Part shown: one piece after another, positions 3,647 through 46,335 of the stretch
Layout: each line of letters starts with the position of its first letter
Numbering within the stretch: position 1 is the first letter of the stretch
Sequence record: MK234886
DNA: 64,000 bases
From: Escherichia phage AnYang
Direction: 5' to 3' (one strand)
Notes under the pieces: generated by a model
What the model saw: the letters and a program-made list of their open reading frames with translations, nothing else
Database searches by the model: none
Told to the model about the DNA's origin: nothing
Made by a program: the position numbers and the translations under genes

Positions 3647-3880
3647 TTATTCCAGAATAGTTTTGATAGTGGTTGCGTTACGCTCTTTTAGAGCTCTTAA
3701 TAGGTTATGACAATTTTCAAGAATAGGCACCGTTTTGTAGTTCATGTTGGCATAAACCCACTCGGATTTATAGTACGATTTCCAACGAGAGAAAAAGTAC
3801 TTTTTATATTCTACTGAATAGGCTATCAGGTTTTCACCTTTTGAGTTCAGACCTGAAAACTTAACTAAACGAAATTTCAT
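3647..3880 (-). CDS. hypothetical protein (31.2-like position)
   Basis: ORF track; synteny. Confidence 0.4.
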   Translation of the reverse strand: MKFRLVKFSGLNSKGENLIAYSVEYKKYFFSRWKSYYKSEWVYANMNYKTVPILENCHNLLRALKERNATTIKTILE

Positions 3881-4425
3881 TATTCACCACAATAGTTTTG
3901 AATTGATTCCCAGTTCAAAGAACGGAGACCTGTACGGTTATACTGGATAACTTCGATGCCTGATTCACGGAGGATATCGTCCCAACCTTCAGGATTTCGG
4001 TCATAGAGCTCAGCATAAACCAATGTTTTAATTCCTGACTGCGCAATAGACTTAGCACAATCAGCGCACGGAGATAATGTCACGTACATCGTAGCGCCAT
4101 CAATAGAACTTCCGGTACGAGCTGCAAACAAAATAGCATTCAGTTCAGCATGGATTTCATTTTTAGATGACCATGCAGCGTGAGCCATACGGTGTTCTTT
4201 AAGAAGAACGGATTTATGCGACATCCGTGTCGGGTCATACACAACACGAGTCCAGTCCTGTTCCACAGCATGGTCGCAACAGTTAACACCACCAGACGGT
4301 GAACCGTTATAGCCTGTAGAGATAATGCGACCATTCTTTTCGATAACCGCACCCACTTTCCATGAACAACATTTTGATTCTTGAGAAATCAGATATGCAA
4401 TCTGAAGGTATGTGCTTGCTTTCAT
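3880..4425 (-). CDS. cd: dCMP deaminase
   Basis: Cytidine/dCMP deaminase zinc motifs HAELNA and PCADC; 181 aa; T4 cd position. Confidence 0.85.
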   Translation of the reverse strand: MKASTYLQIAYLISQESKCCSWKVGAVIEKNGRIISTGYNGSPSGGVNCCDHAVEQDWTRVVYDPTRMSHKSVLLKEHRMAHAAWSSKNEIHAELNAILFAARTGSSIDGATMYVTLSPCADCAKSIAQSGIKTLVYAELYDRNPEGWDDILRESGIEVIQYNRTGLRSLNWESIQNYCGE

Positions 4426-6115: not shown

Positions 6116-7509
<1,394 letters not shown>

Positions 7510-8834: not shown

Positions 8835-8863
8835 ATACTAACACATCATGAGGAGATGTAAAC
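8835..8863 (-). promoter_or_regulatory. T4-type early promoter
   Basis: -35 GTTTAC (8858..8863), 17-nt spacer, -10 TAGTAT (8835..8840). Confidence 0.6.
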
Positions 8864-10011
8864 TACTCTACCACAATTTCTTTCAAATATTTTTCAGGGA
8901 TTTGGGCTTTATGGTTTTTCAAGAACACAGAGTTAATCTGGTCTACAACCGTATCATAATTAATACCACCCACGTACGCCTGCATAAGAATAGAGAACAA
9001 CCCTGGGAAATCCTTAAGGATTAGCTGTCCGGTAACGGCGTAGTCTTTACGGTCGCGGCCTTTGAGTTGAGAGTAAGCTGCTTCCAACAAAGCCAATGAT
9101 TGTTCTAGGTAATCTAAATGGGTACGTTCAAAGGCATCGATTTTCTCAATAGCAAACGAATCTGTACTGAACAGACCACGAAGGTCATCAGTTCCACCTG
9201 CCACTACAACTTCAAACAACCGTTCGTTATTGTTAATGGAATCTTTGGTATGATGTAGTGCACTGTACCAGGCGGTTTTGAGTTTAAAGAACGTACCATC
9301 TTTCAGTACAAAGATGAAACCTTCAATACCCTCTTGTTTACGGATGTTTTCTACGAAATCACCCTCAGCGAGCTCATAGCTTTCAACCAAATGCTTACGC
9401 AGCGCGCCGTCCTTAAACAATTCAGCATACGGAATATACTCACCTGTTTCATTATTACGAACGTTCAACAGGATGAGGTTTGTTTCTTGGTAAGCCAGCA
9501 CGATACGGTTGGTAGGTGCAACATATTCAAGGTTGCAGGTATACCCAGCTTTGGTGATTTCTTCTAGACGTGCGGCAAAAGCCTCATTCTCAGGGAGACG
9601 AAGGAAACGTAAAGAATCATATACCATCGATGAATGGATAGAGCCTTTAGATTTAACAGAAAGATACTGACGGTCCATGAATGTAGAAATCAGAGAACCA
9701 TCTTCCTTAGCCATTACGAGGTCGATATTTTCTGGCGACAAATCCAGACCGATAGTCAGTGGGTTTTCGTCAAGGTTAAAGAACTTTTGCATAGGACGAG
9801 CAGCAATACGTACCGGACCGTTCTCGTCCATTTCAAACATAATGCCTCGGCACTCTAGTGCTCCGTCCTCCAACCAATCAGAGTATGATGCATAGTTATA
9901 ACTAAAGATGCGATAGTTGACTCCTAGCGCACTCTGAAAGTCTTTAAAGAAGAACTTAGATTTAGTCGAGTTTTTAACCAGGGCCATCAAGTTATCATAT
10001 AATTCAATCAT
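8863..10011 (-). CDS. rnlA: RNA ligase 1
   Basis: Close match to remembered T4 Rnl1 (YRIFSYNYASYSDWL, ALECRGIMFEM, EDGSL). Confidence 0.85.
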   Translation of the reverse strand: MIELYDNLMALVKNSTKSKFFFKDFQSALGVNYRIFSYNYASYSDWLEDGALECRGIMFEMDENGPVRIAARPMQKFFNLDENPLTIGLDLSPENIDLVMAKEDGSLISTFMDRQYLSVKSKGSIHSSMVYDSLRFLRLPENEAFAARLEEITKAGYTCNLEYVAPTNRIVLAYQETNLILLNVRNNETGEYIPYAELFKDGALRKHLVESYELAEGDFVENIRKQEGIEGFIFVLKDGTFFKLKTAWYSALHHTKDSINNNERLFEVVVAGGTDDLRGLFSTDSFAIEKIDAFERTHLDYLEQSLALLEAAYSQLKGRDRKDYAVTGQLILKDFPGLFSILMQAYVGGINYDTVVDQINSVFLKNHKAQIPEKYLKEIVVE

Positions 10012-33976: not shown

Positions 33977-34609
33977 TTAAATTGCGTTGGTTACGGTTTT
34001 GATAACTTCAGATGATACGTTTTGGAAGTCGATATAAGTATTCTTACCACCAGTCTTAATCTTAACATCAAGATTCAAGGAAGTAAACACTTGTTTTTCT
34101 TTATCAGTCATATTATAACCGAAGATGCGCATCATTCCGTCACGACGGACTTCGATTTGACGAATACCATTGGTACGTTTGGCGAATCGAACTTCAAGGT
34201 TGCTACGGTTTTCAGCAATTTCACGAATCTCGATACGGTCTTCTAATAAAGCTTTAACTTCATCAGCCAGTGTTACCATTTCAGGAGTAACACCACGTGA
34301 ACTACGCGTTTTACGTTTTTCCAACATCTCTGGGGCATTTTCAGAAGCGAACAGGTCAGCAGCTTTTTGAACTAGGTCCATTGCTTCACCCGTAGCCACT
34401 AAACCATCACCAGATTTTTCGATGAATCCTTTCTTAATCAATACACCGATGTTAGAGTTAACTACCGCAGCACTAAATTGCTCACTCAGGGCTTCACGGA
34501 CTTCGCCTGAAGTGATGAAGTTATGCTTGATGATATGTACTAAGATCGAAGCAGTTTTTTCATTCAGGACGTCTTCAGAAGCTTTGATGATATAAGTAAT
34601 TTTAGACAT
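33977..34609 (-). CDS. motA: MotA middle-promoter transcription activator
   Basis: MSKITYIIKAS.DVLNEKTA...GVLIKKG..EKSGDGL; strong match to remembered T4 MotA. Confidence 0.9.
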   Translation of the reverse strand: MSKITYIIKASEDVLNEKTASILVHIIKHNFITSGEVREALSEQFSAAVVNSNIGVLIKKGFIEKSGDGLVATGEAMDLVQKAADLFASENAPEMLEKRKTRSSRGVTPEMVTLADEVKALLEDRIEIREIAENRSNLEVRFAKRTNGIRQIEVRRDGMMRIFGYNMTDKEKQVFTSLNLDVKIKTGGKNTYIDFQNVSSEVIKTVTNAI

Positions 34610-34682
34610 TTTAATCTCCGATAACCATTTATTTGATAGGTCTATAATAACATTATCATAGACCTTTGTATATAATTTTTAA

Positions 34683-34922
34683 TTAAATTGCGCTTTTAAC
34701 ATAATCAACATAAGCTTCAACAACTTTCTTAGAAGAAATTTTAGCTTGACCACGACCATTACCAGTTTTTAAATTTTTCTTAACAACCACTTTATCTGAC
34801 TTAACACCCCATACATGGATATAAGTATCTAAATCACAATCAAAGAACATTGCATGATCGGTATTAGCGTTGTAGAAAAAAGAATTAATATTTAAGGTTT
34901 TCATTTTGTATCTCCATTTCAC
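34683..34922 (-). CDS. hypothetical protein (79 aa)
   Basis: ORF track; promoter 34943..34971 upstream. Confidence 0.4.
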   Translation of the reverse strand: MKWRYKMKTLNINSFFYNANTDHAMFFDCDLDTYIHVWGVKSDKVVVKKNLKTGNGRGQAKISSKKVVEAYVDYVKSAI

Positions 34923-34942
34923 TCTGTTGTTTTGATAGGTCT

Positions 34943-34971
34943 ATAGTATCATGTTTAAAGCAGAAGTAAAC
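34943..34971 (-). promoter_or_regulatory. T4-type early promoter
   Basis: -35 GTTTAC (34966..34971), 17-nt spacer, -10 TACTAT (34943..34948). Confidence 0.6.
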
Positions 34972-34987
34972 ACTTTTTTTCACTAAA

Positions 34988-35013
34988 CCCAAAAAAGGAA
35001 CCCGAAGGTTCCT
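34988..35013 (-). terminator. intrinsic terminator downstream of gene 52
   Basis: GGAACC-TTCG-GGTTCC hairpin followed by TTTTTTGGG. Confidence 0.7.
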
Positions 35014-35117
35014 TACTTTTTAAAGTGGGCCGCTATTAAACCTATAGCTAAGCCTGTCGCCAGGCCTAGAATAACAGCAAAGATACAGAGTAACAAGAAC
35101 TCGACTCCAAGGCTCAT
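35013..35117 (-). CDS. small hydrophobic peptide (34 aa), not in ORF track
   Basis: Manual translation MSLGVEFLLLCIFAVILGLATGLAIGLIAAHFKK; ATGA overlap with the gene 52 stop; terminator immediately downstream. Confidence 0.3.
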   Translation of the reverse strand: MSLGVEFLLLCIFAVILGLATGLAIGLIAAHFKK

Positions 35118-36442
35118 AGAGCCTCCAAATCTTTAACATACTCAGTTACCACATCAGTGGTTTTCCAGTATTGGTGCTCTTCTTTCTTAGCTTTAGCTTC
35201 GAGGGCCAGTTTCTTGGCTTCATCGGATGTGATATGGAAAATGTTCATTGCAACCAGTTTATCGGCATATTCGCCATAGACTTTATTACCAGCCAATTCT
35301 TCGGTTAAAACCTTACGAGTCTTACCTTGGATAACCACTACGCCATCAATAACATCTTTGATGAATGTAGCTTTAGCCAATGCCAGTTTAAAAGCTTCTT
35401 CGGTTTCGATGATTTTACCATCAATACGTTTCTGTACAAAGGTCTTACGGACCTCAACGAAATCACGAATCAGTTCAACTGCATCTTCGTAAACCTTAAG
35501 TTTACCTTTTTCATTAATGACGGTCAGGTTTTGTGAACGACGTTCGATTAACCCGAAGTCCTTCATGATTTTTTCGTGCTTCTTATTTTCTTCGGTAGGC
35601 AATTCGTATTCTTTACGAATCTTAACCTTGAAGCCAAAACCGTTCTCGTCACAGTCATCATCATATGTGATATACCCTTTGTCTTCCAGAGGGTCTAATA
35701 TCTTGGCCACATATGTTTCACGGTCATACTTATACGGAATTTCCGTGATATGCATTTGGGTTCGAGATGTGAACTTATACGTTCCACGAATCTCATAACT
35801 ACCAGGCTCAATCTCAACAACTTCACCACGGAATTCAGGATAAGCCACTTTGGGTTTGGTTACTCGTTTTTCCTGAAGAACTTGCAATACAGCTTTCTTA
35901 ACAGAATCAAAACTATGAGGAAGAATATTAGTTGCATAACCAGTTGCAATACCGGAAACGCCATTAAGAAGAACAGTAGGAATAATAGGCAGATAAAAAG
36001 CCGGTGGCTTATGTTCGACATCCGCATGAACCGGAGCATATTCTGTGTCCTTATAAACTTTTGCAAAGTTACTTCCTATACGAGCAAAAATATAACGAGA
36101 GGCCGCAGCTTTTTGAACCAATCGGGAACCAAAGTTACCTTGACCGTCTAACAATGGATAGTTGTTGTTCCATGTGTTGGCCATCAAAGCCCCTGCTTCC
36201 TGAGCAGAACCTTCGCCGTGGTGATATCCAAGGTCGGCTACGCCGCCAGCAATAGAAGCTAGTTTGTGGAATTTTTCTTTATTACCACGAGCCATATCAA
36301 GACAACGAGCCACTACAAAACGTTGTACAGGTTTAAAGCCATCAATCATATTTGGAATGGCTCGGTTTTCGACAGTATACATTGCATAAGCCAATGCTTC
36401 ATTGTCGATAATACTTTTTAAACCACGAGATGTTAATTCCAT
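35114..36442 (-). CDS. 52: gp52 topoisomerase II medium subunit (GyrA-like)
   Basis: 442 aa; N-terminus AYAMYTVENRAIP..DGFKPVQR is a type IIA topoisomerase signature. Confidence 0.9.
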   Translation of the reverse strand: MELTSRGLKSIIDNEALAYAMYTVENRAIPNMIDGFKPVQRFVVARCLDMARGNKEKFHKLASIAGGVADLGYHHGEGSAQEAGALMANTWNNNYPLLDGQGNFGSRLVQKAAASRYIFARIGSNFAKVYKDTEYAPVHADVEHKPPAFYLPIIPTVLLNGVSGIATGYATNILPHSFDSVKKAVLQVLQEKRVTKPKVAYPEFRGEVVEIEPGSYEIRGTYKFTSRTQMHITEIPYKYDRETYVAKILDPLEDKGYITYDDDCDENGFGFKVKIRKEYELPTEENKKHEKIMKDFGLIERRSQNLTVINEKGKLKVYEDAVELIRDFVEVRKTFVQKRIDGKIIETEEAFKLALAKATFIKDVIDGVVVIQGKTRKVLTEELAGNKVYGEYADKLVAMNIFHITSDEAKKLALEAKAKKEEHQYWKTTDVVTEYVKDLEAL

Positions 36443-36446
36443 AATT

Positions 36447-36587
36447 TTACCATACTAGTGAATGAATAGCCATAATAACATCGGAAATAAAAAGCACAAC
36501 TTGGATAAGTCCGAACATTACTCCATAATACAGTGCTACTAATAAAGCAGCAAGGGCTAACGAGTAGCCCAAGATTTTCTTAATCAT
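36447..36587 (-). CDS. small membrane peptide (46 aa), not in ORF track
   Basis: Manual translation MIKKILGYSLALAALLVALYYGVMFGLIQVVLFISDVIMAIHSLVW. Confidence 0.3.
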   Translation of the reverse strand: MIKKILGYSLALAALLVALYYGVMFGLIQVVLFISDVIMAIHSLVW

Positions 36588-36741
36588 TTTTAATCATCTT
36601 AAGTAAACCGACAGAAGTAGAAAGAACCCAGCCAATAAACAGAAAACTTAAGAATATCGGACCAGGGGTCCACACACCTAAAAAGAAGCAAACTGAACAG
36701 ACAATAGCCATAATAAGTTCAATAAAAACTAGGATAATCAT
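36580..36741 (-). CDS. small membrane protein (53 aa), not in ORF track; ac-like position
   Basis: Manual translation MIILVFIELIMAIVCSVCFFLGVWTPGPIFLSFLFIGWVLSTSVGLLKMIKND; SD GAGGA. Confidence 0.35.
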   Translation of the reverse strand: MIILVFIELIMAIVCSVCFFLGVWTPGPIFLSFLFIGWVLSTSVGLLKMIKND

Positions 36742-36751
36742 ATTTTCCTCA

Positions 36752-36829
36752 TTAGCGTCCGAAGACGCCTTTAGTTTTAAGATTGTTACGATAGAACTGC
36801 ATCACATGTTCGTTATGGAAATTGCTCAT
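36752..36829 (-). CDS. stp: Stp peptide (25 aa)
   Basis: Manual translation [25 protein letters not shown] matches the remembered T4 Stp peptide; ATG overlaps the ndd stop. Confidence 0.7.
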
Positions 36830-37278
36830 TAGTACGCCTGCAGAATGAATTTAAAGTTATCAGCCAACATACGGTTCATTTCTTCTAGTGTCTGGAGGTC
36901 GGAACTATGATTACGAGTGAAAGCCATTGCAATTTGACCCTTACCAAAACCTGTAGTCAGAGGTTTCATCTTAGAAGCTGGTACATAAAGAACTTCATAC
37001 ACAACACCGTTCACTGCCATAGTGCGGGCTGATTGAGAACGTTTCTTACGAATGTTAGCCACGATACCATCAAGACCTTGAGCCGAACGTTGATTACCGA
37101 CATAAAAACGAGCCGCTACGACACGAGAATCAGCTCCACCTTTAACAAAGAAGTAGAAGCCTGGCTGGGCAGAGATTTCTTTAGAAGGTTTACCATTTTG
37201 GTATTCACCGTTCTTAACATAAGCAACAGTAGTAGCACCAGCAGACAGAACGTTACGGCGAGTCATATAAGTATTCAT
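36829..37278 (-). CDS. ndd: Ndd nucleoid-disruption protein
   Basis: C-terminal half ([41 protein letters not shown]) matches remembered T4 Ndd. Confidence 0.85.
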
Positions 37279-37327
37279 ATCAATTTCCTCAGTAGATTAA
37301 TGTTTTGTTATCCAGTCAACGAGAACC

Positions 37328-37356
37328 ATTATAACATGATTCTCGAGGTTGTAAAC
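37328..37356 (-). promoter_or_regulatory. T4-type early promoter with stem-loop (ndd)
   Basis: -35 GTTTAC (37351..37356), 17-nt spacer, -10 TATAAT (37328..37333); inverted repeat GAGAA...TTCTC. Confidence 0.6.
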
Positions 37357-37724
37357 TATTTTTGTAGCTGTTCTAAAATAAATCCGCTCGTATAAAAGGT
37401 AGCATTATAAACCTTGTTCAGCGGGTTCAAAGCACGTCCATAGGTATCACATAATTCTTTGATAACATTTTCATAACTCACATAATAGCCGCTATGATAA
37501 TACGGGTCCATACTCATACGAAATTTAATGAACCGATAAAAGCCTGTTTCCGGGTCTTGAACGAAAACGAAATCAGCACTCATCATAATTTTTGAATCTA
37601 CGCCAGGAATCATACTTTGATTGAATGCCACCGATGCATCCTGAAGGCTGAGTTGTTTAAAGAACATTACCTTAGCATTACCAAAAAAGATTTTAGACAT
37701 GATAATTTCCTTATTCAGCGTCAA
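37356..37724 (-). CDS. hypothetical protein (122 aa)
   Basis: ORF track. Confidence 0.4.
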   Translation of the reverse strand: MTLNKEIIMSKIFFGNAKVMFFKQLSLQDASVAFNQSMIPGVDSKIMMSADFVFVQDPETGFYRFIKFRMSMDPYYHSGYYVSYENVIKELCDTYGRALNPLNKVYNATFYTSGFILEQLQK

Positions 37725-45749: not shown

Positions 45750-45926
45750 TCACTTAGTCAGCAGGTCGTAAAACCCACCATTAACATGTTTAGGGGCCGA
45801 GACTAACCGAACAGCCAGCCGATGGCAATCAGGACAAACATCATTATCTCTTTCAGAGATTTTCTTGATTTTTTCGTATTCTTTTGCACAGTCTTCAGAT
45901 TGGCATTTATAATCATAAAGTGGCAT
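45750..45926 (-). CDS. FmdB-like zinc-ribbon protein (58 aa), not in ORF track
   Basis: Manual translation MPLYDYKCQSEDCAKEYEKIKKISERDNDVCPDCHRLAVRLVSAPKHVNGGFYDLLTK; CxxxxC...CPxC; SD AAGGAA. Confidence 0.4.
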   Translation of the reverse strand: MPLYDYKCQSEDCAKEYEKIKKISERDNDVCPDCHRLAVRLVSAPKHVNGGFYDLLTK

Positions 45927-45927
45927 A

Positions 45928-46335
45928 TTATTCCTTAAAGTGAGCTTTCAACATCTGGTAAACGGTCCAGGCTTCAGAGTTATTAGAGATAGTGATTTTA
46001 GTCAAAGGGAAATCACTCGGTTCGGACGGTTCATCACTATCATCGTAGTCATAATCACGGTCTTCATCCAATTCTTCGTCGCACTCAACTTCAACCATTT
46101 CGGTAAAAAATTTCCTCTCACTAGCGTATATAACCATATCTTTATTATCGCCGTAAACCAGGTCGAAGTTGGTTACACATCCATTTGAAATTTTAACCGG
46201 GGAAAAACCTTCACCTTCAATAATAACATCGGCTACAATATTATTGATACCTCTACGACGGAATTCAGCTTCTGCCGCATCATCTTTAAAATAGTACCAT
46301 TTACCTTTTTCAAATTCAGGTTCTTGATTAAGCAT
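45928..46335 (-). CDS. hypothetical protein with strongly acidic C-terminal segment
   Basis: ORF track trimmed to internal Met; C-terminal DEELDEDRDYDYDDSDEPSEPSDF. Confidence 0.4.
   Translation of the reverse strand: MLNQEPEFEKGKWYYFKDDAAEAEFRRRGINNIVADVIIEGEGFSPVKISNGCVTNFDLVYGDNKDMVIYASERKFFTEMVEVECDEELDEDRDYDYDDSDEPSEPSDFPLTKITISNNSEAWTVYQMLKAHFKE

Follow-up and report, generated by a model that had tools for sequence, protein, structure and literature searches.

Do the very short open reading frames (ORFs) that surround gene 52 of Escherichia phage AnYang encode genuine peptides and, if so, what could these peptides do to the host? We analysed a stretch of 64,000 nucleotides (nt) of this phage (sequence record MK234886), called the window below, which holds on its minus strand four ORFs of fewer than 60 amino acids (aa), with products of 25, 53, 46 and 34 aa. 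A first-pass annotation had read them as the T4 peptide Stp and three small membrane peptides, and our own reading recovered all four on the minus strand, at the same positions and with exactly the same peptides. The window belongs to a Dhakavirus, a T4 relative of the JS98/IME08/IME341 kind; nucleotide identity of the region is 97% with the Dhakaviruses IME341 and IME08 and 94% with JS98 and JS10. Very probably the region is a T4-type early transcription unit of this Dhakavirus with the order ndd-stp-X-52.1-52-Y, in which all four short ORFs are genuine genes and in which X (the 53-aa ORF) and Y (the 34-aa ORF) would be alternative cassettes whose products insert into the membrane.

The layout of the locus was read over positions 34500-37400, with an ORF list that extended down to at least 20 aa. 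The best promoter-like site of this region (37328..37355, minus strand) is of the early sigma-70 type, with TTTACA and TATAAT separated by a 16-nt spacer carrying TG (11 of 12 consensus matches), and precedes the ndd start by about 50 nt. The first gene of the unit is ndd (36829..37278, minus strand), encoding the 149-aa nucleoid disruption protein (PF06591, 1.1e-68) and bearing the same name in relatives. It is followed on the same strand by stp (36752..36829), the 53-aa ORF in what we call the ac slot (36580..36741), gene 52.1 (36447..36587), gene 52 for the 442-aa medium subunit of topoisomerase II (35114..36442; PF00521, 1.8e-75) and the 34-aa ORF in what we call the motA.1 slot (35013..35117). 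An intrinsic terminator (34995..35014, minus strand) closes the unit with an 8-bp stem and UUCG loop, AAGGAACC-UUCG-GGUUCCUU, and then a U run; its folding energy is -15.6 kcal/mol (z = -2.1) and its stem starts within the stop codon of the 34-aa ORF.

The junctions between these ORFs are tight. The ndd stop and the stp ATG share the letters TAATG, a 1-nt overlap; a GAGGA Shine-Dalgarno sequence after the stp stop precedes the ATG of the 53-aa ORF, whose stop is overlapped for 8 nt by the start of the 46-aa ORF; the latter ends 4 nt before the ATG of gene 52, and the 34-aa ORF begins on the gene 52 stop with a 4-nt ATGA overlap and a GGAGG Shine-Dalgarno sequence upstream. The description of three hydrophobic ORFs flanking gene 52, each with a stop/start overlap or a Shine-Dalgarno sequence, is thus in agreement with both the sequence and the ORF list. 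Since the promoter-like site and the terminator bound six ORFs with such junctions, we consider the region to be one compact transcription unit. It closely parallels T4, whose record lists ndd, stp (26 aa), ac (51 aa), 52.1 (46 aa), 52, motA.1 (49 aa) and motA: gene order runs ndd-stp-[53 aa]-52.1-52-[34 aa] here and ndd-stp-ac-52.1-52-motA.1 there, and the start/stop overlaps of 1, 8 and 4 nt are equal. Architecture and overlaps being the same, each of the four ORFs corresponds in position to a T4 gene that was annotated long ago, and for these T4 genes early transcription has been reported (PMC9697503, supplement).

Nothing can be concluded from ORF length alone at this locus, where a stretch of 5 kb is overlapped by 66 ORFs of 20 aa or more. 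Conservation was assessed on same-strand ORFs in 44 IMG/VR loci that surround homologues of gene 52 and in four GenBank references, with counts given out of 49. Matches to 52.1 were present in 35 loci, to stp in 18, to the 53-aa family in 17 and to the 34-aa family in 12, all of them at constant offsets from gene 52. Each of the four ORFs also matches a PHROG family over its full length, with E values from 2e-20 to 8e-26. No premature stops break the stp, 53-aa, 52.1 and 34-aa frames in related genomes, where they are intact, save for one phage lacking most of 52.1 (see below). All four have substitution patterns such as purifying selection on coding sequence would leave, the 53-aa ORF most weakly so. 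The three peptides flanking gene 52 are strongly hydrophobic, about as much as a peptide can be, with a grand average of hydropathy (GRAVY) of 1.7-1.8. That they are real, conserved small membrane-type peptides, as first proposed, is borne out by the PHROG matches, the kept offsets and the mostly synonymous change.

Several points weigh against this reading. Among close relatives the 53-aa ORF is weakly constrained, with a ratio of non-synonymous to synonymous divergence (dN/dS) of 0.3-0.7 based on only 2-7 substitutions. Hydrophobicity alone is weak evidence, because spurious hydrophobic ORFs are frequent in AT-rich phage DNA: of 797 ORFs with 30-80 aa on the same strand of the compared loci, 276 have a GRAVY of 0.9 or more. 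The T4 counterparts motA.1, 52.1, ac and stp went undetected as proteins in proteomics, though their RNAs are early (PMC9697503, supplement). The 155-kb record of Escherichia phage vB_EcoM_005 (L039; P0001) lacks most of 52.1 owing to a deletion of about 99 nt, which would make the gene dispensable unless it is an assembly error; through it the 53-aa ORF becomes part of a fused 70-aa product, and gene 52 also appears truncated there. Finally, the translation of the four ORFs in this phage, membrane insertion and any host target are matters that we infer from sequence.

These points could be taken to mean that the hydrophobic ORFs, especially those of 34 and 53 aa, are chance frames in AT-rich spacer DNA, or spacers that are translated merely to couple ribosomes from one gene to the next. 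The abundance of chance ORFs of this size and the high background of small hydrophobic ones would fit such an explanation, as would the T4 mass spectrometry, the start of gene 52 only 4 nt past the 52.1 stop without a strong Shine-Dalgarno sequence, and the extreme narrowness of the 34-aa family, which forms one 50%-identity cluster among 1.84 billion representative proteins in an exhaustive HMMER search. It is set against a surplus of synonymous over non-synonymous changes (9 against 1 in the 34-aa ORF; a dN/dS of 0.04-0.3 in 52.1), the persistence of the motifs of the small ORFs at 26-53% identity in distant phages, and the strong Shine-Dalgarno sequences that the 34-aa and 53-aa ORFs have of their own. 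Moreover the 34-aa ORF is the last one before the terminator, so that nothing lies downstream for it to couple. We regard chance or spacer frames as very improbable, and keep to genuine genes.

Small hydrophobic ORFs as such are a general feature of this position: one to four of them lie between ndd and gene 52 (700 nt upstream) in 44 of 44 T4-like loci (L005-L048), and in 30 of the 44 one starts at the gene 52 stop, from several unrelated families. Their position is conserved while their sequence turns over; the background of hydrophobic ORFs is high, so that these counts carry little weight.

The identity of the 25-aa peptide is the clearest. The first-pass annotation had recognised Stp in this ORF overlapping the ndd stop, and the profile search bears this out, with PF08133 (Nuclease_act) matched at 72.1 bits and an E value of 2e-20 against a curated cut-off of 25 bits, over positions 1-25 of a 26-position profile; phrog_6763 is matched at 1.6e-20. 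In the alignment to T4 Stp, 25 of 25 aligned residues are the same and the C-terminal Gln26 is missing. The annotated Stp of JS10 is the same peptide, also lacking Gln26. In T4, loss-of-function mutations of Stp cluster at residues 4-14 within a functional core of residues 1-18, and a deletion of eight C-terminal codons lowers activity only moderately (PMC3014915). Both the mutational hotspot and the core are intact in the AnYang peptide, whose residues 1-25 are those of T4, and no functional difference is expected from the absence of Gln26 because the longer deletion is tolerated in T4. The position matches too, an ORF of about 26 codons straight after ndd with the TAATG overlap. Relative to T4 the gene shows two synonymous and no non-synonymous changes (synonymous divergence, dS, 0.17), and the peptide is hydrophilic (GRAVY -0.94). 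Judged by these features the 25-aa peptide is an orthologue of T4 Stp.

What would this peptide do? T4 Stp inhibits the type IC restriction enzyme EcoprrI and thereby unmasks the anticodon nuclease PrrC, and the polynucleotide kinase Pnk together with RNA ligase 1 (Rnl1) are the repair enzymes by which T4 survives PrrC activation (PMC3014915); the role first ascribed to the peptide, an EcoprrI inhibitor that triggers PrrC, agrees with this work. By homology, and with high confidence, the AnYang peptide would bind host type IC restriction complexes (EcoprrI, EcoR124I) and block DNA restriction. In prr+ hosts the same binding would unmask the PrrC nuclease, and tRNA-Lys cut in its anticodon would be repaired by phage Pnk and Rnl1. 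Both repair genes are found within the same window on the minus strand, namely pseT for the polynucleotide kinase/phosphatase (6305..7213; PF25109, 3e-59, plus a kinase P-loop domain) and gene 63, or rnlA, for RNA ligase 1 (8863..10011; PF20819, 9.4e-46, and PF09511, 1.8e-22). Hence this phage possesses the tRNA-repair arm that belongs to the Stp-PrrC circuit, and the occurrence of the two genes is consistent with a role of the peptide as type IC inhibitor and PrrC activator. The likeness to the T4 system thus extends from residues 1-25, the position and the 1-nt ndd overlap to the partner genes pseT and rnlA, the difference being Gln26. If this is right, the phage should relieve type IC restriction and trigger prr+ hosts, an event that it should survive by means of its own Pnk and Rnl1.

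Stp-like peptides were also seen outside the T4-like phages. The Kagunavirus K1ind2 (L052) has an unannotated 25-aa ORF (NC_041898.1, 40077-40151) that is 92% identical and is preceded by a GGAG Shine-Dalgarno sequence, and a 31-aa Stp-like ORF lies at about 45894-45986 of the Drexlerviridae phage Sf12 (L053, NC_047848.1). A tblastn search with the 25-aa peptide at a permissive E-value limit of 1 hit 797 phage records; weak matches of 52-63% over residues 1-19 in Salmonella siphoviruses may be due to chance. Together with phrog_28068, the K1ind2, Sf12 and tblastn matches suggest that the type IC anti-restriction peptide is common to unrelated coliphage groups.

The 46-aa ORF had been put forward as one of the candidate membrane-targeted host-interaction peptides, but it turned out to be simply gp52.1. 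It matches PF24129 (DUF7396) at 81.2 bits (6e-23; cut-off 27) over 46 of 46 positions and lies immediately 5' of gene 52, as in T4. No fewer than 45 of its 46 residues are those of T4 gp52.1 (phrog_3595), the difference being one conservative change from Leu41 to Ile, and the 8-nt overlap with the upstream ORF and the 4-nt gap to gene 52 are shared as well. Divergence from T4 is almost entirely synonymous (dN 0.019, dS 0.50, dN/dS 0.04), with dN/dS ranging from 0.04 to 0.3 across comparisons, and by all these measures the 46-aa ORF is gp52.1, a very strongly constrained hydrophobic peptide. AlphaFold2 run on the single sequence gave one continuous helix of 44 residues (2-45) with a mean confidence score (pLDDT) of 94, a model from which a long tilted helix and a hairpin with its bend at the conserved YYG cannot be told apart. 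The YYG and LFISDVI positions of gp52.1 are invariant. A literature search on gp52.1 and motA.1 found no functional study.

Why should so small a peptide be so constrained? Its amino acid identity to T4 is 98%, against 81% for gp52 and 61% for Ndd, and in the 35 loci mentioned above its homologue directly precedes gene 52, at a distance of 4-12 nt; these loci include phages whose gp52 is only 64-66% identical. On this basis gp52.1 could be viewed as a dedicated topoisomerase accessory of the phage, a membrane tether or regulator of gp39/gp52/gp60, and not as an effector directed at the host. Translational coupling explains the linkage of 52.1 to 52 equally well. More distant T4-like loci (L034-L047) carry non-homologous small ORFs, or none, at the 52.1 position, and vB_EcoM_005 appears to do without most of the gene, so that we consider a topoisomerase accessory distinctly improbable. 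Translation of 52.1 probably also delivers ribosomes to gene 52, because its frame ends 4 nt before the start of gene 52, whose ribosome-binding site is weak. Together with the extreme conservation, this suggests two roles for gp52.1, those of a constrained peptide and of a coupler that serves the translation of gene 52.

Compared with T4, stp (0.17) and 52.1 (0.50) have a much lower synonymous divergence than gene 52 (dS about 1.8), which points either to recent exchange between genera or to an extra constraint at the nucleotide level. An Rfam scan of positions 34600-37400 returned one sub-threshold chance match only, and there is therefore no evidence of a known RNA element behind the conservation of stp or 52.1.

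The 53-aa ORF raises a different question, that of its relation to T4 Ac, the protein of acridine sensitivity (or "resistance"). The first-pass annotation had called the hydrophobic peptides analogous to Ac, and for this ORF the analogy stands in position, size and predicted shape and fails in sequence. The ORF occupies the genomic slot of Ac between stp and 52.1 in an early transcription unit, is of about 50 aa and is predicted to form a two-helix membrane hairpin; it even ends with the same Asn-Asp as Ac, imposed by the 8-nt overlap with 52.1. It matches phrog_9347 over 53 of 53 positions (8e-26) and no other family, whereas T4 Ac and orf256 of JS98 match phrog_2501, and alignment of the two families with hhalign detected no homology (probability 0.6%). 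The 53-aa family has its own motif, FIELI..AIVC..C[FY]F.G.W.P, kept down to 26-33% identity, with an acidic residue in helix 1, and tblastn with the peptide hit 75 phage records, each covering at least 80% of it. AlphaFold2 with a seven-sequence alignment predicted helices at 2-21 and 28-52 (pLDDT 75) joined by a conserved GVWTPG turn, and the basic C-terminus suggests that both ends of such a hairpin may face the cytoplasm. The overall dN/dS is about 0.24-0.73, with values of 0.24-0.55 at greater distance.

One could still argue that the 53-aa ORF is a true Ac orthologue that has diverged beyond recognition and through which infected cells would accumulate acridines, probably by a block of AcrAB-TolC. 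The slot between stp and 52.1, the lengths of 53 and 51 aa and the shared overlap speak for this, as do the two-helix hairpins predicted for the 53-aa peptide by AlphaFold2 and for Ac by ESMFold (bioRxiv 10.1101/2025.06.30.662393), and Bas38 (AugustSocin) has the 53-aa type in the place of Ac under the name "acridine resistance protein", a label given by position only. Against it stand the separate PHROG families, the failed profile comparison and a nucleotide identity of 49% in the slot, near that of unrelated sequence, between flanks at 90-95%. In JS98 and NC-G, moreover, the 53-aa ORF has an Ac homologue of phrog_2501 as its neighbour, which argues for distinct genes and not alleles of one; the mutual exclusivity expected of orthologues is not seen. 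A diverged Ac orthologue is thus unlikely, and we place the 53-aa ORF outside the Ac family because the homology test failed and because it co-exists with Ac. One ORF of locus L010 had seemed to link the two families by phmmer (1e-3 to Ac, 4e-16 to the 53-aa family); the profile comparison lent it no support and we took it to be transmembrane-composition noise.

The 53-aa peptide possibly works like Ac without being a member of its family. E. coli that expresses T4 Ac, a membrane peptide, becomes more sensitive to acriflavine and ampicillin, and obstruction of AcrAB-TolC has been proposed (bioRxiv 10.1101/2025.06.30.662393; repeated in PMC13250531). A member of the Ac family would be expected to make infected cells sensitive to acriflavine, and its loss to make them resistant. 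We found no acriflavine data in PMC13250531 for Bas38 or the Dhakaviruses, or for other phages with only the 53-aa type.

The last ORF of the unit, of 34 aa, shows the same combination of a conserved position with an unrelated sequence. It matches phrog_16377 over 34 of 34 positions (2.3e-21), whereas T4 MotA.1 falls in phrog_3487, and comparison of the two by hhalign gave a probability of 0.7%. Like motA.1 it is a small hydrophobic ORF that starts with a 4-nt ATGA overlap on the gene 52 stop and is the last of its unit; unlike it, the ORF encodes 34 instead of 49 aa with one predicted hydrophobic span, followed by Lys-Lys, instead of two. The ORF is intact in the 12 loci, and its nine synonymous changes and single non-synonymous one were counted against L007. 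A tblastn search of phages with the 34-aa peptide returned nothing, for which the low-complexity filter and the short length are the probable cause.

How could such unrelated peptides come to lie in the same slots? Nucleotide identity to T4 along the window is 95% in stp, 90% in 52.1, 75% in gene 52, 64% in ndd, 49% in the ac slot and 40% in the motA.1 slot. As far as sequence comparison can tell, two very conserved small genes flank an ac slot whose content is unrelated between the window and T4, and this content varies independently of the core phylogeny. The 53-aa type replaces Ac in the Tequatrovirus AugustSocin (Bas38), and L007, whose gp52 is 93% identical to that of the window, has a sub-allele of the 53-aa type that is only 33% identical and is common to much more distant phages. 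The two Stp alleles among the compared loci, of T4 type and JS98 type, are not distributed according to gp52 relatedness and, like the ac-slot contents, of which there are at least three, they occur scattered over the genera. In addition a further ORF, for a two-helix membrane peptide of 57 aa (phrog_5941), lies between ndd and stp in IME341, JS98 and C6 and is absent from the window; it overlaps the stp start by 8 nt (window 36742-36760 compared with 3724-3897 of the IME341 locus, L002). A single diverged superfamily of the 53-aa peptide, Ac, the 34-aa peptide, MotA.1, phrog_5941 and gp52.1 was considered and rejected, as all hhalign probabilities were below 3%.

T4-type genomes have variable regions of small ORFs beside conserved core genes. 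The present locus resembles these, with cassettes beside conserved core genes and alleles that do not track the core phylogeny, and looks like a small example of this pattern and no new phenomenon. One may speculate further that the stretch from stp to 52.1 is an exchange site, where the conserved small genes would serve as homology arms and non-homologous two-helix membrane peptides would be swapped or stacked across genera, namely Ac (phrog_2501) and the phrog_9347 53-aa family with its very divergent sub-alleles, with phrog_5941 as a further variable insert between ndd and stp. The 53-aa peptide would then be a functional alternative to Ac acting on a different inner-membrane pump or transporter, and phages would carry a host-tuned "menu" of peptides that modify pumps or permeability. 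We offer this extended proposal as a tentative one, more doubtful than probable. Were it true, the ac slot would provide natural comparisons (Ac only, 53-aa only, both) for the effects of Ac-like peptides on efflux and permeability.

Returning to the early transcription unit itself, we picture the 53-aa hairpin (X, phrog_9347) and the 34-aa single-pass peptide (Y, phrog_16377) as alternative cassettes beside the conserved genes 52, 52.1 and stp. Most likely X, Y and gp52.1 would act by entering the inner membrane of the host at an early time of the infection; there they could bind or perturb host membrane proteins or permeability, as is now proposed for Ac with AcrAB-TolC. A host-interaction role of the three membrane peptides is what we infer, the only experimental anchor of such a model being T4 Ac.

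The four ORFs had been presented as overlooked genes. This does not hold, since they are counterparts of T4 stp, ac, 52.1 and motA.1 and each is annotated in at least one related genome. Public annotation is patchy: stp and 52.1 have entries in JS10, which has none for the ORFs of 53 and 34 aa; Bp7 has those of 53 and 46 aa called, and phage C6 those of 34 (ORF267), 46, 53 and 57 aa, with stp present and unannotated; IME08 has only 52.1 annotated among these small ORFs; and IME341 annotates 52.1 and the 57-aa ORF, leaving stp and the 53-aa and 34-aa ORFs unannotated. Each of the four already has its place among the T4 genes or in the PHROG catalogue, so that the finding is correct but ordinary, its only mildly new point being that non-homologous membrane peptides swap between the conserved islands of stp and 52.1. 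Its main value is one of annotation hygiene, in that genes shorter than 60 aa deserve to be called in this genome, namely stp, 52.1 and two membrane ORFs specific to the lineage.

A further small ORF of 79 aa (34683-34922, minus strand) lies between the terminator and motA. Relatives list it as a "hypothetical protein" of about 71-77 aa, and T4 has no annotated gene at this place, between motA.1 and motA.

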